Notes: generated by a model not told the origin, from the letters alone. A stretch of DNA of 64,000 nucleotides from Eubacteriales bacterium (GCA_045588675.1 JAZNER010000019.1:2003-66002); one strand, 5' to 3'. Counted from the first letter of the stretch, positions 3,124-62,466 are shown. Numbers and translations are program-made.

Positions 3124-4290
3124 TTACTTCAACAAAAATTTAGCCAGCATACGGTACCACAGACCGAAAAATCCTATTTTAGCGACATCATTTATTGCAT
3201 AAATATCGGTTTTTCCGATTTCCTTACCGTCGCATTTGAAAATCACCTCGCCTATGACATCTCCCGTCTTTATCGGGGCAGGAACAGTTTGCGGCAAAAC
3301 CACCGAATGCTCGATTTTTGACATATTATTCTTCTCGGTGACATATGAAAAATCATCAAATTTTGCATTCACCCTATTTTCAACTCCGCCTATTACATTG
3401 ATGTCCTTGATTTTCTCTCCCGAAAGCTTATAAACACCGTAATTTGCAAATCCCCAATCAAGCAATGTGGTTGCCGCCGCATTTCTTATATCTCGGCTCT
3501 CCGAGCCCATAATTACACAAACAAGCGACATTCCATCTCTCTCGGCGGTTGCGCTGATGCAAAAGCCTGCCTTTGAGGTTGAGCCTGTTTTAAGACCTGT
3601 ACAGCCTCGATAAAACCTCACAAGACGGTTAGTATTTGTAAGTCCAAAAAGTCCGTCTCTGATTGTGTCCATCCAAATTGAGCTATACTCCAAAATTTTT
3701 TTGTGCTTGATTAATTCCCTTGACATAATTGCTATATCACGGGCACTTGTCAGGTGCTTTTGTGCTGTGTCATCAAGACCGTTAGTATTTTCAAAGCTTG
3801 TGTTTTTCATATCGAGCTCGCGCGCTCTTTCGTTCATTTGCTTGACAAAAGCTGCCTCACTTCCCGAAATGTGCTCTGCCAAAGCACAGGCAGCATCATT
3901 CGCCGAGGATATGACAACACTTTTCACCATATCCTCAACGCTCATCTGCTCGCCCTCCTTCAAATAAATTTGAGAGCCTCCCATTGATGCCGCGTGCGCG
4001 CTTGTCGTAACGATATCGTCAAGCTTGATTTTTCCCTCGTCAATAGCCTCCATTACAAGCAAAAGCGTCATAATTTTAGTGACCGATGCGGGCGGCAAAG
4101 CCTCATCTGCATTTTGCTCGTAAAGCACTCTCCCCGTGTCAGCCTCCATTAAAATTGCACTCTTGCAGTCAAGGTCAAGATTAACACTCTCTCCCTCTGC
4201 TTCGGCGCTTACAGGATATGCAAAGCAGGAAATTATGACCGACAACATAACGATTATTGCCGTTATTTTTTTTATAAACATAAAAATCAC
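3124..4290 (-). CDS. D-alanyl-D-alanine carboxypeptidase (serine-type, PBP5/DacB-DacF-like)
   Basis: An N-terminal signal peptide is present. Motifs are SxxK (SVTKIM), SxN (SANDAA) and KTG (LKTGST). A C-terminal PBP5_C-like beta domain follows. Confidence 0.88.
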   Translation of the reverse strand: MIFMFIKKITAIIVMLSVIISCFAYPVSAEAEGESVNLDLDCKSAILMEADTGRVLYEQNADEALPPASVTKIMTLLLVMEAIDEGKIKLDDIVTTSAHAASMGGSQIYLKEGEQMSVEDMVKSVVISSANDAACALAEHISGSEAAFVKQMNERARELDMKNTSFENTNGLDDTAQKHLTSARDIAIMSRELIKHKKILEYSSIWMDTIRDGLFGLTNTNRLVRFYRGCTGLKTGSTSKAGFCISATAERDGMSLVCVIMGSESRDIRNAAATTLLDWGFANYGVYKLSGEKIKDINVIGGVENRVNAKFDDFSYVTEKNNMSKIEHSVVLPQTVPAPIKTGDVIGEVIFKCDGKEIGKTDIYAINDVAKIGFFGLWYRMLAKFLLK

Positions 4291-4331
4291 CCCTTCACTT
4301 AAATTTATTAAGCAAAGGGGTGCGTTATGAA

Positions 4332-4883
4332 TTAATGTCTATTCTTTTTTCTTTTCTCGGCACGATTTAATTCTTTGATGTGGGCAAAGGTCTTTTTTTC
4401 GCCTTCGTCTGCAAGCATACAAAGCCATTCCTCAAGCAGGTCCGCCGTGCTCTCGTGCATCTTGGATCGTGCATTTCCCCACCTGTAATACTCCAGAGCC
4501 GAGCTGTCGGTATATTTATCTCCCTGATAGATTTTGCTTGCCGCCACTCTGTCGCAAAACATTTCGGTTACATATTTAAGCGGCATAGGAACAGGCTCAT
4601 ATCTCTTGGTTTGGGTATTCAAATCATTCCAATATTCAAAGTGATGGCGGTTTCTTCCCTTATGGTGCATCCACGCCAATGAATACCCAAAAAGCTCTCT
4701 TTCCTTTTCGTTTGGGCTTCTTGTGCCGAGATAATATTTCGCACCTTGAATAAACTCTGTCGGAGAGTATTTTGACAAATCGTGGAACAGCCCCTGAAAT
4801 CCAATGCCTGCCTTAAAGCAATGTATAATCACCTTGTGTCGATGCTTGGTTATTGTTCTGAAATGCTTTATCGGATGCGCCAT
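4332..4883 (-). CDS. Conserved hypothetical protein, DUF5662-like (HD-like histidine-rich)
   Basis: The N-terminus HFRTITKHRHKVIIHCFKAGIGFQGLFHDLSKYSPTEF and the later WMHHKGRNRHHFEYW match my memory of the DUF5662 family. This has not been verified by an HMM. Confidence 0.5.
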   Translation of the reverse strand: MAHPIKHFRTITKHRHKVIIHCFKAGIGFQGLFHDLSKYSPTEFIQGAKYYLGTRSPNEKERELFGYSLAWMHHKGRNRHHFEYWNDLNTQTKRYEPVPMPLKYVTEMFCDRVAASKIYQGDKYTDSSALEYYRWGNARSKMHESTADLLEEWLCMLADEGEKKTFAHIKELNRAEKRKKNRH

Positions 4884-4904
4884 AATACCTCCTTTCCAAT
4901 GCCT

Positions 4905-5705
4905 TTATTTTATAGGCTTTAAGCTTATGTTTTCAAGTAAATTCAAGTTTGGGAAGCTCTTAACTAAGCTTTCTGCAAAGCGCAGAGCTGTCGGGTCGCA
5001 GACGTTTTTCACGAAATGAGCATCACTGCCAAAAATTACATCACAGCCAATCTCATTTGCAATCTGCCAGAATTGAAGAGTAGGATAATTTCTCATCTGC
5101 TGCAAGCCGTAAAAGTTAATTTCAAGTGGCATTTTATGCTCGTTTGCGCAATTAATAAGCCGTCTTGCTTCTCTCTCATAAGCATCAAGCGGAGCTTGCC
5201 CGTAATTGATCAGGTCAGGGTGAGCAAGATAAGTAAACTTGCCCGTCCTAATTCCCTTTATCACCTGACTTACATATTCCTCAAGCACATCTGCTCTTGA
5301 TGTTTTGTCACCGTAATATTTGTGTTTCGTATCAAAATCCGAGAAATGCTGACCTAAAATTATATATTCGGTCGGATACTGCGAAAGATATTCAATAAGC
5401 TCGTCAAAAACAGGGGCAAAATATTCAACCTCAAAGCCTATATGGATATTTATATCTTTTTTGTATTCCTCTTTCAGCTTCAAAAGCGTATTGACATAAT
5501 CTTCTGTTTCGTCCATTGACATACGGATAGCCAAGAGTGTATTCTTTGTAATTATGTCGCAATCCCTTGGCATAGGCATCGGCGAATGGTCTGAAAAGCC
5601 CAAATCACGAATTCCAAGCTCAATTGCCTTTTCAATATACGCTCTCTCATCTATATTCTCCGCGTGTCCGCATCTATATGTATGGGTGTGGTAATTTGCT
5701 ATCAT
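4905..5705 (-). CDS. Histidinol-phosphatase, PHP family (HisJ/HisK type)
   Basis: The N-terminal HTHTYRCGHA metal-binding motif is present. FSDHSP and GSDAH motifs are typical of PHP histidinol phosphatases. Confidence 0.8.
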   Translation of the reverse strand: MIANYHTHTYRCGHAENIDERAYIEKAIELGIRDLGFSDHSPMPMPRDCDIITKNTLLAIRMSMDETEDYVNTLLKLKEEYKKDINIHIGFEVEYFAPVFDELIEYLSQYPTEYIILGQHFSDFDTKHKYYGDKTSRADVLEEYVSQVIKGIRTGKFTYLAHPDLINYGQAPLDAYEREARRLINCANEHKMPLEINFYGLQQMRNYPTLQFWQIANEIGCDVIFGSDAHFVKNVCDPTALRFAESLVKSFPNLNLLENISLKPIK

Positions 5706-5833: not shown

Positions 5834-8671
5834 TTATTTATTAAGCCATTTCTTGAGATATTGTCCTGTATATGAGCCCTTGACATTGGCAACCTCCTCA
5901 GGAGTGCCCTCAGCGACTATTTGTCCACCGCCTTCTCCGCCCTCAGGACCAAGATCAATAATGTGGTCAGCGCACTTGATCACATCAAGATTATGCTCAA
6001 TGACAAGCACGCTGTTTCCCCCGTCGCAAATCATCTGCAAAACATCAAGAAGCTTTGCTACATCTGCGGTATGAAGTCCCGTCGTTGGCTCGTCAAGAAT
6101 ATAAATCGTCTTGCCCGTGCTTCTCTTTGAAAGCTCGGTCGCAAGCTTAACTCTTTGAGCCTCTCCGCCCGAAAGTGTGGTTGAGGATTGTCCGATTTTA
6201 ATATATCCAAGTCCTACATCATAAAGGGTTTTGAGCTTGCGGGTGATTTTGGGCAGTCCGTCAAAGAAATTAAGCCCCTCCTCAACTGTCATATCAAGCA
6301 CATCAAAAATGCTTTTACCCTTGTATTTGACCTCAAGCGTATCCGAATTATATCTTTTGCCCTTGCATACATCACAGGTCACATAAACATCGGGAAGAAA
6401 GTGCATTTCGATACATTTTACTCCGTCGCCCTCACAGGCTTCACAGCGTCCGCCCTTATTATTAAACGAAAATCTGCCTGCTGCATAGCCTCTCGCCTTT
6501 GCGTCCTTGGTTGATGCGAAAAGCTCTCTTATATCGGTAAACAAGCCCGTATAGGTCGCAGGGTTTGAGCGCGGTGTCCGTCCGATCGGACTTTGGTCTA
6601 TGCAAATCACCTTATCAAGATTTTCTATGCCCTCAATCCCCTCGCACTTGCCTGGATAGGAAATAGCGCGGTTCAGGTCGCGGGCAAGCTTTGGATACAA
6701 AATCCCATTCACCAACGAGGATTTTCCCGAACCCGAAACGCCTGTCACACAAACAAATTTACCAAGCGGGATTTTAACATCGATCTTCTTTAAATTGTGC
6801 TCCTCGGCACCCTTTACAGTTAAATAATTACCATTGCCTTCTCGGCGTTTGTGAGGTATTGCGATTTTCCTTCTGCCCGACAAATACTCGCCTGTTATTG
6901 AGCTTGTATTTTGTCTTATTTCATCGGGCGTTCCGACCGCAACGACCTGTCCGCCGTGAACTCCTGCGCCGGGTCCTATATCAACGATATAGTCAGCCTC
7001 CTCCATAGTTTCCTCGTCGTGCTCTACGACAATTACGGTATTGCCAAGGTCACGGAGCTTTTTGAGGGTTGAAATCAGCTTTGAATTGTCACGCTGATGC
7101 AAGCCTATGCTTGGCTCGTCAAGAATATATAACACGCCGACAAGAGATGAGCCGATTTGAGTTGCAAGTCTTATTCTTTGTGCCTCTCCTCCCGAAAGCG
7201 TTCCTGCTTTTCTTGCAAGAGTGAGATAGTCAAGACCAACGCTTACAAGAAAACCTAGTCGCGAGCGTATCTCCTTCAGAATTTCTTTTGCAATTTCATT
7301 TTCGGTTTCGCTCAATTCAAGCTTATTTACAAAATCAAGCGCATTTTTCACTGACAAAGCACAAAGCTCGTGTATGTTCATTCCGCCGACCGTTACCGCC
7401 AAGGACATAGGATTAAGCCTTTGCCCATTACAGTATTTACACGGCGCTTCTTCGATAAATTGCTCATAATATTCGGCGCTCATACCGTATTCAAGCCTTT
7501 GCTCGATCATACGCACAAGCCCCTCAAATTTAGCGCTCTTATCGTGAGCCTGTCCTCCAAAATATCTTGTAACCTGATAGCTTTGCTCTCCCGAACCGTT
7601 CATCAAAATATCATAGGCTTCGTCAGAAAAGTCCTTTATGGGAGTATCAAGGTCAAACCCAAATTTTTCACCGACCGCACGGAAAAGAGGTCCGTTCCAG
7701 CTCTCCTCTTCAAGAGTTTTAAAGCCGTTTACATTAATTGCTCCCTCGGAAAGCGAAAGCTTTTTGTCGGGGATAAGCCTATCTATTGCAATCCGTCTTG
7801 TTTCTCCAAGTCCCGAGCAATGAGGACACGCCCCTTGCGGATTGTTGAATGAGAACATTCTCGGCTCAAATTCACCGACAGAGATTCCGTGCTCCTCACA
7901 GGCGTAGGATTGGGAAAAAGTGAGTATTCCCTCTTCATTTTCTTCTCTGTTTTCAAGCAGAGGAACTATTATCAGGTGTCCGTCAGCAATGCTCAAGGCA
8001 TTTTCAACCGAATCTGATAATCTTGGGCGTATGCCCTCCCTCATAACAAGACGGTCAACAACGATTTCAATAGAGTGCTTTTTGTTCTTGTCAAGCTTAA
8101 TCTCCTCGGACAAATCATAGATTATACCGTCAACCCTGACTCTGACATATCCGCTCTTCTTCGCGTCTGCAAAAACCTTTTCGTGCATACCCTTTTGCGC
8201 GCGGACAACGGGAGCGACCACCAAAAATCTCTCTCCCTCGGGCAATTTCATTATTCTGTCAATAATCTGGTCAACGCTCTGCTGTCTTATTTCCTTGCCG
8301 CACACGGGGCAATGAGGAATACCTATTCTGGCGTACAAAAGACGCAGATAGTCATAAATTTCGGTTACCGTTCCCACCGTTGAGCGTGGATTTTTTGATG
8401 TCGTTTTCTGGTCAATTGAAATTGACGGAGAAAGTCCGTCTATTGAATCAACGTCAGGCTTATCAAGCTGACCAAGAAACATTCTCGCATAGCTTGATAG
8501 CGACTCTACAAATCTTCTGTGCCCCTCTGCGTAGATTGTATCAAACGCAAGTGAGGATTTTCCTGAACCCGAAAGCCCCGAGAGAACAACCAGCTTGTCC
8601 CTCGGTATCGTGACATCTATATTTTTCAGATTGTGGACGCGCGCGCCCTTAATTACTATATTTTGTTCCAT
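5834..8671 (-). CDS. uvrA: Excinuclease ABC subunit A
   Basis: The protein is 945 aa. It has two ABC ATPase modules ([18 protein letters not shown]; LSGGEAQR twice) and Cys4 zinc fingers. Confidence 0.97.
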
Positions 8672-51079: not shown

Positions 51080-51739
51080 ATGTATATTTACAAGGATTTT
51101 GAAGTACCGCGCCTTAACCAAGACAATTTGGATATTATCAAAAAAATGCGCTTGATAAAAATAAAATATTTACTTATTATCATAGCCTTGCTGATTTTTG
51201 ATAGCTTTGTTTTCAGTTTTTATATTCTTAATAATAGCAATAGTTACGTCAAATTTGATTATTGGGACTATATTGTCTTTTGGATAATATTTTTTGTCTT
51301 ACCGTTTTGCCTCTTTAAATGCTATAAGCTTTTTACCGAAAAAAGCGAGGTAAAATACATTGAAGACTCCGATGTCAAAATTATGTGGCATGTTGACGGA
51401 CCTGTAATAAGACCCAGTAGCGTAAAGACAAAGCCGTTTCGCATTTATACTTTAAAGGATAAAAATGGCAAACGCTCAAAATATAGGATTGGAAACGAAA
51501 CATCTCACAATCTTTGTTTAAAGTCAAACGGATTCTTGGTAAAATATGCAGGACTTAAATTTGCCGTTGCCGTTAACAATGAATTACCAGAGGTCTTCAT
51601 TTGTGCAAATTGCGGCACTTTAAACAAGGTTGAAGCAAAAAAGTGTTATTGGTGTAATTCATCATTAATTAAGATTTTTACAAGGGAGTCTTACAACGAT
51701 GCTCTTGAAAAAACAAATAAAAAACTAAACAATTTTTAA
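51080..51739 (+). CDS. 2-TM membrane protein with C-terminal zinc ribbon, function unknown
   Basis: A strong SD (GGGGGGAGG) precedes the ATG. There are two hydrophobic helices (res ~28-50, 63-82). The C-terminus has CANCGTLNKVEAKKCYWCNS (CxxC-x11-CxxC). The sequence is visibly AT-rich compared with its neighbours. Confidence 0.65.
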   Translation: MYIYKDFEVPRLNQDNLDIIKKMRLIKIKYLLIIIALLIFDSFVFSFYILNNSNSYVKFDYWDYIVFWIIFFVLPFCLFKCYKLFTEKSEVKYIEDSDVKIMWHVDGPVIRPSSVKTKPFRIYTLKDKNGKRSKYRIGNETSHNLCLKSNGFLVKYAGLKFAVAVNNELPEVFICANCGTLNKVEAKKCYWCNSSLIKIFTRESYNDALEKTNKKLNNF

Positions 51740-57197: not shown

Positions 57198-57226
57198 TTG
57201 ACAAATACAAAATTGTGTGATATAAT
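57198..57226 (+). promoter_or_regulatory. Sigma-A-type promoter of the tRNA operon
   Basis: TTGACA (57198)-17 nt-TGATATAAT (TATAAT at 57221-57226), about 30 nt upstream of tRNA-Val. Confidence 0.75.
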
Positions 57227-57255: not shown

Positions 57256-57331
57256 GGAAGCATAGCTCAGTTGGGAGAGCATCTGCCTTACAAGCAGAGG
57301 GTCATAGGTTCGAGCCCTATTGTTTCCACCA
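57256..57331 (+). tRNA. tRNA-Val (anticodon UAC)
   Basis: Folded by hand. The acceptor is GGAAGCA/TGTTTCC (one G-U). The anticodon arm is TCTGC-CTTACAA-GCAGA and the T-loop is GGTTCGAGCCC. CCA is encoded. Confidence 0.93.
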
Positions 57332-57452
57332 TTAAGTTTAGCTCCCAATAGGGTGATAAACCAAAAGGCAATTTGCACGAAGTGCAAATTAGTCTTGAGC
57401 CCATTTTGCGTAAGCAAAATGAGTGCAATCTGGCGCGGAAGCGACAGATTAA

Positions 57453-57529
57453 GGCCCGGTAGTTCAGTTGGTTAGAACGCTAGCCTGTCACGCTAGAGGT
57501 CAGGGGTTCGAGTCCCGTTCGGGTCGCCA
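57453..57529 (+). tRNA. tRNA-Asp (anticodon GUC)
   Basis: The acceptor is GGCCCGG/TCGGGTC. The anticodon arm is CTAGC-CTGTCAC-GCTAG and the T-loop is GGTTCGAGTCC. CCA is encoded. Confidence 0.93.
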
Positions 57530-57644
57530 CTTACTTTTCTTGAAAGAAAAGTAAGAAAAAGAACTTTCAAATATTGGTTTGCGGTATTTGAAAATGTTTA
57601 TTCATCACACGATGGTGAAAATCATATAATTTAATAGCCACTAC

Positions 57645-57720
57645 GCGGATTTAGCTCATTTGGTAGAGCGCGACCTTGCCAAGGTCGAGGTGGCGGGTTC
57701 GAGCCCCGTAATCCGCTCCA
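57645..57720 (+). tRNA. tRNA-Gly (anticodon GCC)
   Basis: The acceptor is GCGGATT/AATCCGC. The anticodon arm is CGACC-TTGCCAA-GGTCG and the T-loop is GGTTCGAGCCC. CCA is encoded. Confidence 0.93.
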
Positions 57721-57727
57721 TAAATTT

Positions 57728-57802
57728 GGTGACGTAGCCAAGTGGTAAGGCCCCGGTCTGCAACACCGTTATCCATCGGTTCAAATCCGATCGTCACCTC
57801 CA
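57728..57802 (+). tRNA. tRNA-Cys (anticodon GCA)
   Basis: The acceptor is GGTGACG/CGTCACC. The anticodon loop is CTGCAAC and the T-arm is ATCGG-TTCAAAT-CCGAT. CCA is encoded. Confidence 0.92.
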
Positions 57803-57810
57803 ACAAAAAA

Positions 57811-57836
57811 AGCAACCCTGTTGGGTTGCTTTTTTC
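57811..57836 (+). terminator. Terminator of the tRNA operon
   Basis: AGCAACCC-TGTT-GGGTTGCT followed by TTTTT. Nearly the same hairpin recurs at 60081-60100. Confidence 0.85.
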
Positions 57837-57837
57837 G

Positions 57838-57923
57838 TTGGAGGTAACGCTTGGTCACTTGAATTGATACAACTCGCCACAGGCGAGTTAAGGGTCGAAA
57901 TCCGATTGTCACATCGCCGCCGC
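57838..57923 (+). repeat. Repeat module copy 1 (tRNA-Cys-3'-half-like segment plus 7-N3-7 palindrome)
   Basis: TTGGAGGTAACGCTTGGTCACTTGAATTGATACAACTCGCCACAGGCGAGTTAAGGGTCGAAATCCGATTGTCACATCGCC... is about 88% identical by eye to 58550-58636. AAATCCGATTGTCAC (57898-57912) matches tRNA-Cys 57783-57797 at 14 of 15 positions. Confidence 0.85.
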
Positions 57924-57952
57924 TTGACACCTCATCGTTTTTATGCTATACT
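57924..57952 (+). promoter_or_regulatory. Cassette promoter copy 1
   Basis: TTGACACCTCATCGTTTTTATGCTATACT has the -35 TTGACA, a 17-nt spacer and an extended -10 TGCTATACT. The ATG lies 26 nt downstream of the -10. Confidence 0.75.
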
Positions 57953-57977
57953 AAAACCAAGAAAGGCGGTGGCAGAT

Positions 57978-58487
57978 ATGGAAAAACAAACCAAAAACAT
58001 AATCACACGAGAATGGATAGAAAAAGAACTCTATTTTTATAACACTGCGGACATCCGTTCAACACTTGTTTTGTGCGGCGCATTGTCCATCGTGTTTTTG
58101 CCGCTAACTATTATTTCGATTTATGGACTCTGTTATGTGATTGAAAATATGTTGCTCCAAATAGTATTATCCGTTATAATTGGAGGGTTTGCAAGCTCTC
58201 CGATCTGGATCAATCTTCTATCGCTTTGTAGCAGTTTAAATGAAAGAAAACTACTCAAAAATGGAGATTTTGATATTGTTATCCGCGACATACGATATAA
58301 AAGTGAAAAAATAGTCTATCGGTGTCACATAAAGAAGTATTTGTATTTTGATGATTTTAAGGAAAGATTGGTTTCACGCGCGATGTTTGATCTCACTTCA
58401 CAAGGCGATGAATTTTATTTAGTTCATTATAAAACGAAAAACTCAATAAAATTGCTTTACTCTGTCAAAATGTATGAATATAAGTGA
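57978..58487 (+). CDS. 2-TM membrane protein (169 aa), function unknown
   Basis: The start was moved to ATG 57978 (MEKQTKNIITREW). The ORF-track extension crosses the promoter and repeat. There are two hydrophobic helices followed by a ~85-aa beta-rich soluble domain. The gene is AT-rich (about 37% GC in a sampled line). Confidence 0.65.
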   Translation: MEKQTKNIITREWIEKELYFYNTADIRSTLVLCGALSIVFLPLTIISIYGLCYVIENMLLQIVLSVIIGGFASSPIWINLLSLCSSLNERKLLKNGDFDIVIRDIRYKSEKIVYRCHIKKYLYFDDFKERLVSRAMFDLTSQGDEFYLVHYKTKNSIKLLYSVKMYEYK

Positions 58488-58511
58488 TGGCATCTTTTTC
58501 GTCAAAGCGTA

Positions 58512-58553
58512 CCAAACAAAAGAGCACTGCTCTCGCAGTGCTCTTTTGTTTGG
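58512..58553 (+). terminator. Terminator with perfect 19-bp stem
   Basis: CCAAACAAAAGAGCACTGC-TCTC-GCAGTGCTCTTTTGTTTGG. The 3' arm runs into repeat module copy 2. Confidence 0.8.
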
Positions 58554-58636
58554 AGCGGCCGCTTGGTCACTTGAAGTGATACAACTCGCCAAAGGCGAGT
58601 TAAGGGTTCGAAATCCGATTGTCACATCGTAACTTC
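58550..58636 (+). repeat. Repeat module copy 2
   Basis: TTGGAGCGGCCGCTTGGTCACTTGAAGTGATACAACTCGCCAAAGGCGAGTTAAGGGTTCGAAATCCGATTGTCACATCG... The tRNA-Cys-like 15-mer is at 58611-58625. Confidence 0.85.
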
Positions 58637-58665
58637 TTGACACCTCACCGTTTTTATGCTATAAT
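58637..58665 (+). promoter_or_regulatory. Cassette promoter copy 2
   Basis: TTGACACCTCACCGTTTTTATGCTATAAT, with the same 17-nt spacing. The 5'-UTR/RBS (AAGAAAGGCGGTGG) is also shared with copy 1. Confidence 0.75.
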
Positions 58666-58689
58666 AAGGCAAAGAAAGGCGGTGGAACT

Positions 58690-59640
58690 ATGAAAATGAT
58701 ATCAATAAAGACGGCTGCACTTGTTTTGATGTTTTTGTGGATATTATCTTTTGCAATTTGTAACCATTTGGATCTTGTGTCCCAAAAATCAACTTCAAAG
58801 TCTCCACACGCCGAAACCGAGCTAAGTGAGGTATCGGGTACAAATAAATCGGATAAAAATTCTGATGAAACCGAAGAAAAAAATCAAAAAGATCCAGACA
58901 TTAACAAATATAGAGAAGATTATAATTTAGGAACATGCAAAAACCTAAGTGGGAATGTTTCTGTTGTTCTGTTTTATGTTGATGATTTCGAAAGCAGCTG
59001 GAAAAAAGAAGAAATAGATAGGTTTACTCAAAAAGAAGTTGTTCCGGGTTTGGCATTTTTGGAAAAAGCGGCGAAAGCGTACGGGATTGAATTGTCTTTA
59101 GATATTAAAGAAACATATTCATCTATATATTATGACGGTGAAGTTATTACAAGTATAAAAAACACAGGTCTTGCATCTACCAACATATTGTGGCAGGCCG
59201 CGCAGCAAATAAACTATTCCTCAACCGAAGAAATGATAAATTCATTCAGATCAATTTACGAAACTGAAGAAGTTGTATGCTTTACGATATTCAATAAAAA
59301 CGGCACATCTTATGCAATTAATCCAAAAAGGGATTATGATTACAAATTAGATGAGCACTGTATAATTTTTTCACGCGATTTCGATTCAAAAGGTAAAGAT
59401 CCCGATGGTTGGCATGCGTCGGTCATTGCACACGAAACGCTCCATCTTTTCGGCGCCGAAGACTTTTATACAAGTGCATCCCGTAAAATGTTGGCACAGC
59501 TCTATTATCCCAACGATATTATGTTGTCTTGCGCTTATAATATAAATAAGAATAATATCGGAAAGGCAACGGCGTTTTATATTGGATGGATCGAACAAAT
59601 GCCTGCCCTTCTCAGTAAAGAAGGCTGGCAAATAAATTAA
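58690..59640 (+). CDS. Secreted or membrane-anchored putative zinc metallopeptidase (HExxH)
   Basis: An N-terminal signal/anchor is present (AALVLMFLWILSFAIC), followed by a low-complexity acidic linker. A single HExxH lies in VIAHETLHLFGAEDFY near the C-terminus. The family is not identified. Confidence 0.6.
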   Translation: MKMISIKTAALVLMFLWILSFAICNHLDLVSQKSTSKSPHAETELSEVSGTNKSDKNSDETEEKNQKDPDINKYREDYNLGTCKNLSGNVSVVLFYVDDFESSWKKEEIDRFTQKEVVPGLAFLEKAAKAYGIELSLDIKETYSSIYYDGEVITSIKNTGLASTNILWQAAQQINYSSTEEMINSFRSIYETEEVVCFTIFNKNGTSYAINPKRDYDYKLDEHCIIFSRDFDSKGKDPDGWHASVIAHETLHLFGAEDFYTSASRKMLAQLYYPNDIMLSCAYNINKNNIGKATAFYIGWIEQMPALLSKEGWQIN

Positions 59641-59653
59641 TACAAAAAATGGT

Positions 59654-60043
59654 ATGAATATGATCCAAAGTACAAAAGAACTTTACAATAAAATGCTTGA
59701 AACTCCCGGCATTTGCGGCAAATTCGAATTAATTGATAATACTATATTTTGGAATCTTTTCGATGGATACGAGATTCAAATATCTATCGACCCTCCTGAT
59801 ACTTATTTTGGTATTGCAAAAAAGTTGTTTGGGAAAATTACTGATTCGATTATACATTGGCACCCCAATGAAGAAGATGTTTTTCAAGAAGTTTGTGCCA
59901 TTGGGTTGAAAGGACATGTTTTGGTAATTAGAAAAAACTTATTATGTTCCTCAGTAGTTTATATGGGTAAAGAAGGAAATTCACCATATTCCATTAAAAA
60001 GAAATTGTCTTGGGGAAAAATCTATTATCTTAAAGCAAAATAA
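59654..60043 (+). CDS. Small cytoplasmic hypothetical protein (129 aa)
   Basis: The ORF starts 13 nt after the previous stop and lies in the same transcription unit. It has no signal peptide and no recognisable motif. The SD is weak, so the start (59654 or 59660) is uncertain. Confidence 0.5.
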   Translation: MNMIQSTKELYNKMLETPGICGKFELIDNTIFWNLFDGYEIQISIDPPDTYFGIAKKLFGKITDSIIHWHPNEEDVFQEVCAIGLKGHVLVIRKNLLCSSVVYMGKEGNSPYSIKKKLSWGKIYYLKAK

Positions 60044-60076
60044 AGAGGCATCCTTCCTGTCAACTCATACCCAAAA

Positions 60077-60110
60077 AATAAGCAACCCCATTGGGTTGCT
60101 TATTTTTTAT
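60077..60110 (+). terminator. Terminator, near-duplicate of the tRNA operon terminator
   Basis: AATAAGCAACCC-CATT-GGGTTGCTTATT followed by TTTT. Compare AGCAACCC-TGTT-GGGTTGCT at 57811-57830. Confidence 0.85.
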
Positions 60111-60171
60111 TCAAGCTGTAGGCTTGGCATATCATCGACGCCAAAAATTTCGGGTGATAGGGCGCACGAGG

Positions 60172-60200
60172 TTGACACCTCGACATTTTTATGCTATAAT
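60172..60200 (+). promoter_or_regulatory. Cassette promoter copy 3
   Basis: TTGACACCTCGACATTTTTATGCTATAAT has the same -35, spacer length and extended -10 as copies 1 and 2. The upstream GCTTGG.. segment is only weakly related to the module. Confidence 0.75.
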
Positions 60201-60251
60201 CGACTTGGAAATATTTTCTCAATACAGTTACGTGTCAAGAAAGGATTGCTT

Positions 60252-62162
60252 ATGAAACAGATATTCCTGCGAATTATTACCGTATTTCTCACCCTTGTGA
60301 TGCTCCTCTCGCTTTGCGTTACCGCGCACGCTGAGGCAGGATCGGCAGATGAGATCACTATTCTTTTTACCCACGACCTACACTCCCACCTGCTTCCGTC
60401 TGCAGACGAGGACGGAGATGGCGAGTACGGCGGATATGCACGCCTGATGACCCTTATACAGGCGCAGAAGGCAATCGATCCCGACGCCATTCTGGTGGAC
60501 GGCGGAGATTTCTCTATGGGCTCATTGTTTCAAACGGCATACGCTACCTCTGCTATCGAGCTGCGTATGATGGGTGCGATGGGCTATGATGCTACCACCT
60601 TTGGCAATCACGAGTATGATTATCTACAGGATGGACTCAAATCTATGCTGAATGTTGCCGCGGATTGCGGTGACCCCGTCCCTCCGATCCTTTGTGCAAA
60701 TTATTGGCCACCCAAGGAAGGTCAGTCAGGCTATGACGCGGCTATGTGGGATGCGCTTAACAATTACGGTGTCAAGGACTATATGCTTTTGGAAAGAGGC
60801 GGAGTCCATTATGTTATCTTCGGTATTTTCGGTATTGATTCGGATGATTGCGCTCCAAATTCGGGAATGATACTGGAGGATCCCGCTACAATAGCTCAGG
60901 AAACCGTAAACGCCGCGGTAAAGGAATGCAAGGACAAATACGGCGCAGATCCTGTAGTCATATGTCTGTCGCATAGCGGAACTGAGGACGGTAAGGGCGA
61001 GGACTATGAGTTAGCGAAGTCAGTGAACGGTATCGACGTCATCATCTCGGGCCATACTCATACCACTCTTAAGGATCCTATCGTAGTGAACGACACTATC
61101 ATAGCCTCGGCAGGAGAGTACGGACGCTACCTTGGTGTGATCAAAATGACCAATCAGGGCGAGCTTAAGAGCTACGAGCTTATCTCGGTTGACGAGAATG
61201 TGCCTGAGGATCCCGCTGTTGCAGCTCTTGTGGAGAGCTATAAGACCTCTGTGGAGGAGGATTATCTTTCCAAGTACGGCTTTACATTTGATCAGGTACT
61301 ATTACATAACACATATAAATTCGACACGGTGGACGAGGTATATGCTACTCAGCACGAGTCCACTCTCGGTAATCTGTTTGCCGACGCTTACAAGGAAGCG
61401 GTGGAAAACACTACAGGTAAGCGAGTAGATGTGGCGTTGACTGCCGCAGGTGTTGTGCGCGCCACTATGCCTATCGGTAACGTAACCGTTTCTGATGTAT
61501 TCAATGCCGCATCACTGGGAGTCGGCACTGAGGGCGAGCTTATCGCGATCTACGTTACGGGAAAGGATCTGAAAAATGCTATCGAGCTGGATGCCTCGGT
61601 TCAGCCGCTTATGACCTCTGCCCAGCTGTTTATGTCGGGTGTGGAATATTCCTTCAACACTAATCGAATGATCTTCAACAAGGTGGACTATGCAATGCTT
61701 CGAAACGAGGACGGCACGCTTTGCGAGATCGAGGACGACAAGCTTTATCATATCGTGGCGGGTATGTATATGGGTCAGATGCTTGGCTCAGCAGAGCAAA
61801 CCTCAATGGGTATTCTTACGATCACTCCCCGTGACGAGCACGGAAACCCCATATCTGTAGATGAGCTTGTCAATTACGTGGTTAAGGACGAGCAAGGCAA
61901 TCCGCTCAAGGAGTGGTATGCCATAGCTACGTATCTCAATTCTATGGGCGGAGAGATGGATCCCGCGTATGAAAAGCCCGATGGACGTAAGGAGGTATAT
62001 TCCAGCCTTAATCCCGTGCACCTTCTGCGCAACGCCAATATGTTTACGTATATCGCTTTTGCTGTAGTTAATCTGCTTCTTGCGCTTATCGTATTTATAA
62101 TAGTAAAGATCGTCAAGCGTACAAGAGTGAAGAAACAGGCCTCGATACAAGTCCCAAATTAA
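60252..62162 (+). CDS. Bifunctional metallophosphatase/5'-nucleotidase, signal peptide plus C-terminal TM anchor
   Basis: The start was moved to ATG 60252 (MKQIFLRIITVFLTLVMLLSLCVTAHA). Metallophosphoesterase motifs are present: THDLHSH, DGGDF, GNHEYD and SGHTH. A 5'-nucleotidase C-domain follows, then a C-terminal hydrophobic helix and a basic tail. Confidence 0.88.
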   Translation: MKQIFLRIITVFLTLVMLLSLCVTAHAEAGSADEITILFTHDLHSHLLPSADEDGDGEYGGYARLMTLIQAQKAIDPDAILVDGGDFSMGSLFQTAYATSAIELRMMGAMGYDATTFGNHEYDYLQDGLKSMLNVAADCGDPVPPILCANYWPPKEGQSGYDAAMWDALNNYGVKDYMLLERGGVHYVIFGIFGIDSDDCAPNSGMILEDPATIAQETVNAAVKECKDKYGADPVVICLSHSGTEDGKGEDYELAKSVNGIDVIISGHTHTTLKDPIVVNDTIIASAGEYGRYLGVIKMTNQGELKSYELISVDENVPEDPAVAALVESYKTSVEEDYLSKYGFTFDQVLLHNTYKFDTVDEVYATQHESTLGNLFADAYKEAVENTTGKRVDVALTAAGVVRATMPIGNVTVSDVFNAASLGVGTEGELIAIYVTGKDLKNAIELDASVQPLMTSAQLFMSGVEYSFNTNRMIFNKVDYAMLRNEDGTLCEIEDDKLYHIVAGMYMGQMLGSAEQTSMGILTITPRDEHGNPISVDELVNYVVKDEQGNPLKEWYAIATYLNSMGGEMDPAYEKPDGRKEVYSSLNPVHLLRNANMFTYIAFAVVNLLLALIVFIIVKIVKRTRVKKQASIQVPN

Positions 62163-62286
62163 GAAGGTTTTGCTTTAACTCCGATTGTTATTTAAAAGTA
62201 TACGCCAAACTACAAAAGATGAATATATAAAGAACACAAAAAAATGAATTTTTAAGCAACATACTTTTTTCACAGACCAGTACGAC

Positions 62287-62320
62287 AAAAAAATCCGCAC
62301 ACGGCGTGTGCGGATTTTTT
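62287..62320 (+). terminator. Terminator after the 5'-nucleotidase gene
   Basis: AAAAAAATCCGCACAC-GGC-GTGTGCGGATTTTTT. Confidence 0.85.
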
Positions 62321-62329
62321 ATCTTTTTG

Positions 62330-62362
62330 CTTTTCACTTTTCACTTTTCACTTTTCACTTCA
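62330..62362. repeat. Heptanucleotide tandem repeat (CTTTTCA) x4 plus a partial unit
   Basis: Read directly: CTTTTCA CTTTTCA CTTTTCA CTTTTCA CTTCA. Confidence 0.9.
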
Positions 62363-62437: not shown

Positions 62438-62466
62438 TTGACAAATATAAAAAGTTGTGCTATACT
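62438..62466 (+). promoter_or_regulatory. Sigma-A-type promoter upstream of the GH28-like gene
   Basis: TTGACA (62438)-17 nt-TGCTATACT (TATACT at 62461-62466). Confidence 0.65.

Follow-up and report, generated by a model that had tools for sequence, protein, structure and literature searches.

Three small transcription units are stacked directly 3′ of a tRNA-Cys gene in a stretch of DNA from an Eubacteriales bacterium (GCA_045588675.1 JAZNER010000019.1:2003-66002). This stretch of 64,000 nucleotides, which is the part of the source genome that was examined, is termed here the window, and the stack lies at positions 57803-62320. The stack is read, tentatively and with somewhat less than an even chance, as a decayed tRNA-associated islet of three AT-rich open reading frames (ORF1-ORF3) that sits ahead of a resident 5′-nucleotidase unit, and whose regulatory heads were duplicated or homogenised locally. 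With the same reserve, the interval as a whole may be considered a small accessory islet of moron-like units within a housekeeping segment of an uncultured gut Clostridia (Ruminococcaceae-like) bacterium.

Organization of the stack

All three units are autonomous, each with a promoter, a short leader, one or two open reading frames and an intrinsic terminator (Table 1). The 3′ end of the tRNA-Cys gene adjoins the stack, and the first unit begins 35 nt after the tRNA terminator. An earlier description of the locus, made from the sequence alone (the original prediction), had proposed three consecutive units of this form past tRNA-Cys and had concluded that they are not a normal operon. Promoter, open reading frame and hairpin calls confirm the anatomy, and the stacked units are indeed autonomous and made up of boundary modules that are reiterated.

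The entire intergenic head is common to units 1 and 2; it runs from where the upstream gene ends as far as the start codon (57800-57972 and 58512-58685). Between the terminator tail and the ATG the two heads match at 121/143 positions (85%), and the open reading frames on either side are non-homologous; ORF1 and ORF2 are themselves unrelated in sequence. The ∼85 bp upstream module (termed module B) and the leader with its ribosome-binding site, already seen in the original prediction as common to both units, are parts of this larger repeat, which covers the entire intergenic region. The leaders are ∼19 nt long and are essentially AGAAAGGCGGTGG.

Each head is closed by a 21-23-nt copy of the T-loop/acceptor 3′ strand of tRNA-Cys, located 9 nt 5′ of the -35 box. 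The source sequence, from the T-loop to the acceptor 3′ end (57778-57800), reads GGTTCAAATCCGATCGTCAC; it appears as GGTTCGAAATCCGATTGTCAC at 58605-58628 and as GGGTCGAAATCCGATTGTCAC at 57893-57915. The 3′ ends of five tRNAs were searched against both strands of the window, and the two copies score 31 and 26, respectively, against a background maximum of 25, with a shuffle p of ∼0.005 for the copy that scores 31. The tRNA-derived part of module B is limited to these 3′ 21-23 nt. Module B is not a full-length tRNA pseudogene, as ARAGORN (also at a threshold of 80%) and Rfam searches are negative and the 5′ 52 nt are unrelated to tRNA-Cys (p ∼0.9). It matches no Rfam family and is not a stable RNA (z +0.25 to -2.7), only the small central hairpin being robust. 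A fourth tRNA fragment, considered past the 5′-nucleotidase stop codon (∼62172), is not among the significant matches.

The terminator that closes the tRNA operon (T1) recurs at the end of unit 2 (T2), as had been claimed. The AGCAACCC-loop-GGGTTGCT element at 57800-57835 is repeated at 60070-60105 with 83% identity over 36 nt, and the 8-bp stems are identical. T1 and T2 bracket the AT-rich ORF1-ORF3 block, which has a 36-nt CCA-plus-terminator repeat at both edges. T1 also forms the core of a palindrome with ∼38-nt arms, where an inverted copy at 57837-57863 is the pairing partner of the tRNA-Cys 3′ end. A repeat search gave 32-nt arms that are 88% complementary, and the segment 57780-57923 folds at -61.8 kcal/mol (z = -7.6).

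ORF1-ORF3 are outliers in base composition. Their G+C contents of 0.31-0.355 correspond to z values of -1.8 to -3.0 relative to the 52 open reading frames of the window, and they constitute its AT-richest gene cluster; one other gene (51080-51739) is equally AT-rich. Units 1 and 2 are thus AT-richer than their flanks, which had been stated from inspection. The 5′-nucleotidase gene is the GC-richest of the window (0.49, z +1.9). Since its orthologues are GC-richer than their neighbours in four of five other genomes, this high G+C content is probably a property of the gene and not a sign of recent transfer.

Table 1. Features of the stack, and of related loci (L numbers), with locations

Feature	Location	Strand	Unit	Remarks
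tRNA-Cys (GCA)	57728-57802	+		ARAGORN; Rfam tRNA 64.4 bits; last gene of tRNA-Val/Asp/Gly/Cys operon
Terminator T1	57805-57836	+		A-tract, GCAACCC, TGTT, GGGTTGC, T-tract
Module B, copy 1	57837-57923	+		Inverted acceptor-like stretch, TCACTTGAATTGA, hairpin CTCGCC-ACA-GGCGAG, tRNA-Cys 3′ fragment at 57893-57915
Promoter P1	57924-57952	+	1	TTGACA, 17-nt spacer, TG-n-TATACT; predicted transcription start near 57959
Leader	57953-57977	+	1	Extended ribosome-binding site AGAAAGGCGGTGG (57960-57972)
ORF1	57978-58487	+	1	169 aa; two long transmembrane helices, C-terminal small beta-barrel; G+C 0.331
Motif A, copy 1	58488-58519	+		GGCATCTTTTTCGTCAAAGCGTACCAAAC...; 2 nt past the ORF1 stop codon; 28.9 bits, E = 1.8e-07
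Terminator T′	58512-58553	+	1	Perfect 19-nt arms, T1-like flanks, other stem sequence; z = -6.6
Module B, copy 2	58554-58636	+		tRNA-Cys 3′ fragment at 58605-58628, one indel and one mismatch over 21 nt
Promoter P2	58637-58665	+	2	12/12 consensus hexamer matches, TG extension; predicted transcription start near 58672
ORF2	58690-59640	+	2	316 aa; signal/anchor helix, Cys24, disordered linker, metzincin-like domain HETLHLFGAED; G+C 0.355
ORF3	59654-60043	+	2	129 aa, orphan; begins 13 nt past ORF2, no own promoter; G+C 0.31, third-position G+C z = -3.2
Motif A, copy 2	60045-60077	+		25.1 bits, E = 2.9e-06; orthologous to L027:1000-1032
Terminator T2	60073-60108	+	2	Near-copy of T1; same stem at the orthologous place in L027
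Spacer X	60109-60171	+		Unique sequence; p = 0.17-0.71 versus module B
Promoter P3	60172-60200	+	3	Predicted transcription start near 60207; 45-51-nt leader to 60251
ORF4	60252-62162	+	3	636 aa; signal peptide, Metallophos and 5′-nucleotidase C domains, C-terminal transmembrane anchor; G+C 0.492
Terminator T3	62288-62320	+	3	Followed by tandem (CTTTTCA) x 4.4 at 62330-62360
Motif A, related loci	L027:1000-1032; L003:7817-7847, 5855-5885; L010:455-487, 4312-4344
Motif A, L009	4152-4183, 5737-5768, 5766-5789(-), 6969-7001
Heads with spacer pairing	Window 57932-57972, 58645-58685; L027:374-429; L009:4301-4352, 7210-7261; L010:5516-5570
Hairpin-array spacers	L009:7032-7103; L003:3756-3909; L010:440-800, 5140-5520; L027:1080-1290; L012:7850-7900

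Promoters and promoter spacers

P1-P3 match TTGACA-17-TATAAT at 11-12 of 12 positions, and each has the TG extension of a consensus sigma-A extended -10 promoter. The 29-mer has three matches in the window and none in 100 shuffles. Pairwise identities are 27, 26 and 25 of 29, the top three of 190 pairs formed by 20 strong promoter-like sites taken from the whole window; the next-best pair has 23/29 and the mean is 16.8. The near-identity of the three promoters, a central claim of the original prediction, therefore goes beyond what consensus elements and AT-rich spacers produce, the excess for P3 amounting to only two to three positions. The likeness of P3 to P1 and P2 ends exactly at the promoter edges, and the comparison with spacer X (p = 0.17-0.71) rules out that module B occurs a third time 5′ of P3.

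P3 has two further properties. Its -35 box lies in a 6-bp hairpin, CGAGGT-TGAC-ACCTCG, followed by a T-run (60167-60182), which folds no better than shuffled sequence, and its TTGACAC is complementary to GTGTCAA just 5′ of the ORF4 ribosome-binding site. The promoters of the tRNA operon (57198-57226) and of the GH28 gene (62438-62466) resemble each other at 23/29 positions (TTGACAAATAnAAAA...TGTGnTATAnT) and are a second promoter flavour within the same 5 kb.

The P2 spacer (CACCGTTTTT) and the ribosome-binding site that follows it are complementary (z = -3.1). Six heads of the CACCG type, from the window and from related genomes, have a spacer of the form C-A/C-CCG-Y-TTTT that is complementary to the ribosome-binding site AAAGGCGGTG, with a stem of 8-11 bp inside which lie the -10 box and the start of transcription. 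For five of these heads the fold is better than that of shuffled sequence (z -2.1 to -3.4), and 96.9% of the cells in the stem are paired, versus 53-72% with slid partners. P3 does not have this pairing (z +0.75). The stem could form only in RNA begun upstream, so that read-through transcripts would be translationally silent.

The locus in related genomes

The 5′-nucleotidase has many homologues at 73-88% identity, and the loci of several related genomes (designated L003, L008, L027, etc.) were compared with the window. In L008 (85% identity) a tRNA-Cys gene is found 250 bp upstream of the 5′-nucleotidase gene with nothing between them; units 1 and 2 are absent. In L027 (88% identity) motif A, a short sequence that in the window follows the stop codons of ORF1 and ORF3, is orthologous, as are the terminator AAGCAACCC...GGGTTGCTT, the promoter TTGACACCGTAGCGTTTTTGTGCTATAAT and the leader, with ∼85% identity. 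Terminator and promoter are separated by a hairpin array of 217 nt in L027 and by 66 nt in the window. The gene upstream differs, encoding a protein of 190 aa with two transmembrane helices, and its head is P1-like (TTGACACCCCACCGCATTTATGCTATACT then AAACCAAAGAAAGGCGGTGGGAATATG); ORF2 and ORF3 are absent from the L027 locus. Since the control region of unit 3 is orthologous in L027, its promoter, leader and upstream terminator are inherited and not newly accreted. In L003 (82% identity) the gene comes after GH39, again via motif A and a terminator. One other context was noted: at L006:2469-6534 an 84%-identical 5′-nucleotidase gene lies just 3′ of genes for a PemK toxin, three large serine recombinases and a helix-turn-helix protein, which places it at, or close to, the border of a mobile element.

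ORF2 homologues are at most 69% identical. In L009 the homologue is preceded by a true member of the ORF1 family (hhalign 97.4%, E = 1.4e-11), and both genes are equipped with a promoter and a motif A of their own. The genes that come after the ORF2 homologue in L010 and L012 encode unrelated small membrane proteins. Because the ORF1-ORF2 pair recurs in L009, the two genes constitute a conserved pair, and separate accretion of units 1 and 2 is unlikely. The original description of the cargo, a protein with two transmembrane helices, an HExxH protein with a small partner, and an anchored 5′-nucleotidase, is correct; the independence of ORF1 and ORF2 that it implied does not stand. A GH28 gene in L010 is not the orthologue of the window GH28 (28% identity), and an L052 gene annotated as 'Peptidase_M6' was rejected as an ORF2 orthologue, since it shares only HExxHxxGxxD (E = 0.07).

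L003 provides a parallel case in another genome. The T-loop/acceptor of its tRNA-Gln gene (3644-3719) has a 15/16 direct copy 1.2 kb downstream (∼4881-4900), and gene and copy bracket a 23S_rRNA_IVP gene and a gene for a 150-aa membrane protein. This locus is a second tiny tRNA-flanked islet.

Origin of the stack

Since the adjacency of tRNA-Cys and the 5′-nucleotidase gene recurs in L008 and the junction is orthologous in L027, the older arrangement would have been tRNA-Cys followed by the resident 5′-nucleotidase unit. The AT-rich ORF1-ORF2-ORF3 block (∼57837-60108) may then have been inserted between the two, leaving the duplicated CCA-plus-terminator sequence (T1/T2) at its edges. The tRNA-Cys T-loop/acceptor piece in the heads would be an att-like scar of tRNA-targeted integration, perhaps by an integrase; as a recombinase is now absent, the islet would be decayed, in the manner of a cis-mobilizable element (CIME). 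Within the block, the whole head of units 1 and 2 (terminator flanks, module B, promoter, leader and ribosome-binding site) would have been duplicated or gene-converted locally. The likeness of P3 may be due in part to a few homogenising changes and in part to inheritance, since the closest orthologue already has TTGACACC...TTTTTnTGCTATAAT. Transcription of each unit would start at the unit's own promoter, with the terminator before it acting as an insulator. The promoter spacer of units 1 and 2 may pair with the ribosome-binding site in read-through RNA, which would be silent, and RNA from the unit's own promoter would be open to translation.

Several observations weigh against this decayed-islet reading. 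The tRNA-derived repeats do not have the positions of attL/attR: only 92 bp separate copy 1 from the tRNA, and copy 2 is between ORF1 and ORF2. No tRNA-Cys fragment is found at the distal edge of the block, where spacer X has no similarity to module B, and the fragment copies lose identity before the CCA end. Both fragments are embedded in the 173-bp duplication, which could be a purely local event, and the likeness of T1 and T2 might reflect a terminator type common in the lineage. With respect to read-through silencing, the P1 head folds no better than shuffled sequence (z -0.1), and covariation between spacer and ribosome-binding site is not significant: there is one double-sided change, and 198 of 500 shuffles reach the observed value, so that covariation as support for the stem was rejected. 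The comparative evidence also has limits. The closest relatives are 88% (5′-nucleotidase) and 95% (acyltransferase, a 2.3-kb contig) identical and none is above 95%, so that insertion here is not separable from deletion in L008. Long contigs anchored on the acyltransferase gene are 77-78% identical and their core gene order is not syntenic, and therefore the differing 5′-nucleotidase contexts are weak evidence of mobility. In addition, sampling was limited, the scans of sequence collections being exact pattern matches.

The cassette accretion inferred in the original prediction is retained in part. Foreign composition, content that varies among relatives and copies of the tRNA-Cys 3′ end speak for it; attL/attR bracketing, a module that brackets other cargo, separate arrival of units 1 and 2 and a newly accreted unit 3 find no support. 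The variability of the interval that it called for is seen in L008, which does not have units 1 and 2, and in L027, with its other upstream gene, although it carries little weight at this distance. What was not noticed earlier comprises the tRNA-Cys fragment in each head, the compositional outliers ORF1-ORF3, the L008 and L027 junctions, the ORF1-ORF2 pair in L009, and the recurrence of motif A and of AAGGCGGTG heads in relatives.

A purely local duplication, which is rather unlikely, is nevertheless a serious rival, because the decayed-islet reading is without an integrase and its repeats are not placed as attL/attR. One promoter/intergenic region beside the tRNA operon would have been copied before resident genes by unequal or illegitimate recombination, with no mobile element involved, and the tRNA-like 23-mer would be a by-product of copying sequence adjacent to tRNA-Cys. 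That the repeat spans exactly the intergenic regions, that ORF1-ORF2 adjacency is kept in L009, that none of the 52 open reading frames is a recombinase and that no phage or plasmid relative was found all agree with such an event. Module B and the exact promoter, moreover, were found only here in a scan of GTDB for the promoter and of JGI metagenomes for module B. The local event leaves unexplained the strong AT-richness of ORF1-ORF3, the absence of units 1 and 2 between tRNA-Cys and the 5′-nucleotidase gene of L008, and the T1/T2 bracket. Nor does it account for the same head and tail modules, AAGGCGGTG heads and motif A, on non-homologous AT-rich genes of four other genomes.

The scans themselves gave the following. 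The strict promoter pattern has two matches in 185,579 species-representative genomes (GTDB, 596 Gb), among which the source species is apparently not represented. One is the tRNA-Trp promoter of a metagenome-assembled genome (MAG) of a rabbit Ruminococcus and the other is in a Gammaproteobacteria MAG; both were judged to be consensus-driven coincidences. An 18-mer of module B has 21 matches in JGI metagenome contigs, all in unrelated sequence, 20 of the 21 loci having 47-65% G+C. The original idea that promoter and module bracket other cargo genes thus found no support in GTDB representatives (promoter) or JGI metagenomes (module B). A phage or plasmid origin was rejected after blastn and tblastn searches against phages and plasmids, IMG/VR loci and PHROGs were all empty, as was an origin as a defence system, PADLOC giving nothing. 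A Pfam scan of the 52 open reading frames of the window revealed no integrase, resolvase, transposase or conjugation domain, and the statement that no recombinase is present in the window is therefore correct.

Head and tail modules in related genomes

Motif A has the consensus GGCATCTTTTTTGTCAACACGnnTCAAAAA and in the window is located 2-4 nt past the stop codons of ORF1 and ORF3, ahead of the terminators. A sequence model detects 10 direct instances and one inverted instance in five genomes, all in AT-rich accessory loci. These are 2-34 nt past the stop codons of unrelated genes and just 5′ of terminators; ∼170 kb of other sequence that was scanned has no instance. In L009 motif A is a perfect palindrome with 18-nt arms. 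A search of IMG/VR gave 10 matches, none with a terminator on the 3′ side and all apparently within coding sequence, as judged without open reading frame calling. Motif A was rejected as a decayed tRNA-Cys 3′ end, local alignments of nine instances against shuffles giving p = 0.08-0.39.

Within the window, AAGGCGGTG is found at the gene starts of units 1 and 2 only. Looser heads precede non-homologous small genes in L003, L009, L010 and L027, and motif A and the AAGGCGGTG ribosome-binding head recur on AT-rich small genes of related genomes. In all four of these genomes, the genes with such heads and tails have a higher A+T content than the genes beside them.

In relatives, the terminator-promoter spacers are arrays of short GC hairpins parted by 7-8-mers (ATATCACT or ACATCATT), followed by the reverse complements of these. 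The arrays were compared with the Gut-1 RNA motif (Rfam RF01706), an orphan since its description in 2010 (Weinberg et al., 2010; PMC2864571), and score 43.7, 39.9 and 32.4 bits, below the gathering score of 50. The best two, at 40-44 bits, resemble Gut-1 in that short hairpins are parted by conserved 7-8-mers. Taken as its reverse complement, the hairpin at the centre of module B agrees with the first array unit at 19/20 positions. The window, including module B, has no Gut-1 match at E <= 10, and matches in the related loci are all at 32-44 bits, under the threshold.

A non-coding element of ∼220 nt is conserved at different loci of two genomes (L003:5860-6085 and L027:185-395) and belongs to no Rfam family. 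Its hairpins show compensatory changes (GTGAAAACGATTAAGTATCGTTTTCAC versus GCGAAAACGATTGAGTATCGTTTTCGC), and its GGTTCnAATC sequence is T-loop-like; the L003 copy also has an end that resembles that of tRNA-Cys, GGATCGTCGCCTCCA.

Perhaps uncultured gut Clostridia share a pool of AT-rich, self-expressed mini-cassettes, each with an RBS-pairing promoter spacer (RBS, ribosome-binding site), a AAGGCGGTG RBS, motif A, a terminator and Gut-1-like arrays. Such cassettes would be swapped at junctions, often beside tRNA genes and with no linked integrase; the stack would be one array among others and Gut-1 a junction element. This is improbable as a whole. If true, the wider pattern of heads, motif A and Gut-1-like arrays would represent a new class of modular expression cassettes, provide a genomic context for the orphan Gut-1 motif, and reveal a design principle in which a promoter spacer silences the RBS only on read-through transcripts.

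An active, clade-specific cassette system is quite improbable. Here single-gene, self-expressed cassettes with a head (promoter and AAGGCGGTG RBS) and a tail (motif A and terminator) would be exchanged at their junctions, preferentially 3′ of tRNA genes, by a recombinase encoded elsewhere. The clade-wide head and tail modules alone suggest it, and it is a minority possibility. The exclusive occurrence of motif A past stop codons in AT-rich accessory loci fits such a system, as do the similar heads 5′ of non-homologous genes and the stacks of small genes 3′ of tRNA-Gln in L003. In addition, homology of the window to L027 and L003 upstream of the 5′-nucleotidase gene breaks exactly at motif A. 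Against it, the loci that carry the modules (the window, L003, L009, L010 and L027) have no linked recombinase, and L006, which has three serine recombinases, has neither motif A nor a AAGGCGGTG head. Motif A does not have attC-like R″/R′ boxes and is not significantly tRNA-end-like, and an identical cassette is never seen at two loci. Conserved 3′-untranslated-region and RBS motifs can equally be read as the signals of one regulon, and the sample is a handful of metagenome contigs.

Convergence within an envelope-protein regulon, the shared spacer being a protein-binding or RNA-pairing site maintained by selection and not by descent, is very improbable. It would fit the abrupt end of the P3 likeness at the promoter edges, the prediction that the products of ORF1-ORF4 are all membrane or secreted (cell-envelope) proteins, and the general likeness of strong promoters in the window, which reaches 23/29. 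The RBS-pairing spacer, in addition, recurs as CACCG(Y)TTTT in L009 and L027 and as GCCGCCG in L010. The ∼143 bp shared by units 1 and 2 include non-promoter sequence, however, and are explained only by duplication; P3 is without the pairing, and the orthologous 5′-nucleotidase promoters of L003 and L008 have unrelated spacers.

Relation to known elements

Islands at tRNA and tmRNA genes, and the integrase-less CIMEs derived from them, have a conserved sequence beside each repeat (PMC3146451; PMC5704250; PMC2704930), and at known att sites the repeat starts, or crossover takes place, in the T-loop (PMC3146451; PMC2704930). Tandem islands are found at the Dehalococcoides ssrA gene (PMC3146451), and accretion of the ICESt1 type has been reviewed (PMC5704250). 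The stack resembles these elements in its position directly 3′ of a tRNA gene and its atypical composition, and in having ∼20-nt copies of the 3′ end of the gene from the T-loop, with conserved sequence beside each. It differs in that its units are only 0.7-2.3 kb, and in that the repeats, instead of bracketing the units as attL/attR, are inside duplicated promoter heads. There is no integrase anywhere in the 64 kb. Integrase or mobility genes, of which the window has none, are required of an island or an integrative and conjugative element and are absent by definition in a CIME, and the stack is in this respect like the known integrase-less members of the class. If the decayed-islet reading is true, the locus is a compact and datable example of tRNA-proximal islet decay and of head copying between neighbouring genes, useful for annotation but not surprising.

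Phage morons are autonomous promoter-ORF-terminator units added between phage genes (PMC3594210). The units of the stack are likewise self-contained, with their own promoter and factor-independent terminator and a composition unlike that of their neighbours. In contrast to morons, they are not inside a prophage (phage genes are absent, and neither PHROGs nor phage DNA gave a match) and they share regulatory sequences among themselves.

Integron arrays, and clusters of attC sites lacking integron-integrases (CALINs), also consist of unrelated single-gene units parted by reiterated hairpin junctions right after the stop codon. Integron cassettes are promoterless and are served by a common Pc promoter, whereas each unit here has its own promoter (11-12/12) and there is no IntI. 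The junction hairpins are ordinary A-tract/T-tract intrinsic terminators, unlike those of integrons. Motif A was rejected as an integron attC (R″ RYYYAAC and R′ GTTRRRY boxes on the two sides of an imperfect palindrome), as it holds TGTCAAC with no GTTRRRY partner; this is from inspection of alignments, no attC model having been run.

Proteins encoded by the stack

The model of ORF1 has a pLDDT (predicted local distance difference test) of 96.8, and its small beta-barrel resembles DUF2500 structures. The ORF1 family has 210 clusters, is uncharacterised and has no Pfam model. In the ORF2 family Cys24 is nearly invariant (90% or more) and the motif is HExxHxxGxxD. The ORF2 model has a pLDDT of 85, and its best matches among solved structures are fragilysin and the adamalysin/ADAM metzincins, with weak E values of ∼1e-3 and probabilities of 0.99-1.0. 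In one member of the family, P0207 (459 aa), a DUF3592 domain is fused at the N terminus, which hints that the metzincin-like domain may work with a small membrane protein such as ORF1. No relatives of ORF3 were detected in profile libraries or the PDB.

Genomic setting and minor observations

Housekeeping genes fill the window, and Pfam scans identify uvrABC, valS, tyrS/trpS-type synthetases, polA, dnaX, recR, recO, era, ybeY, trmD and rimM. The stack is flanked by the tRNA operon and by TMEM164, acyltransferase and GH28 genes. A consensus promoter of its own, at 57198, precedes the tRNA-Val/Asp/Gly/Cys operon (57256-57802). Named homologues of the acyltransferase and the 5′-nucleotidase are in MAGs labelled Clostridia or Ruminococcaceae bacterium.

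The other AT-rich gene, at 51080-51739, encodes 219 aa, and its neighbours on the two sides are genes for a class I (W/Y-type) aminoacyl-tRNA synthetase and an SPFH-domain protein. Its G+C content of 0.311 (z -3.0) is as low as that of ORF3, its only match is a faint one to a double zinc ribbon, and it may be another foreign gene.

Tandem repeats of the form (C)TTTTCA(CT) are found 3′ of terminators in the window (62330-62360) and at L008:7140-7230, L009:4200-4300 and L010:3400-3520. In relatives an inverted AGTGAA repeat is the counterpart of the TTTTCA repeat, with a second hairpin between the two; of this arrangement the window holds the left half only.

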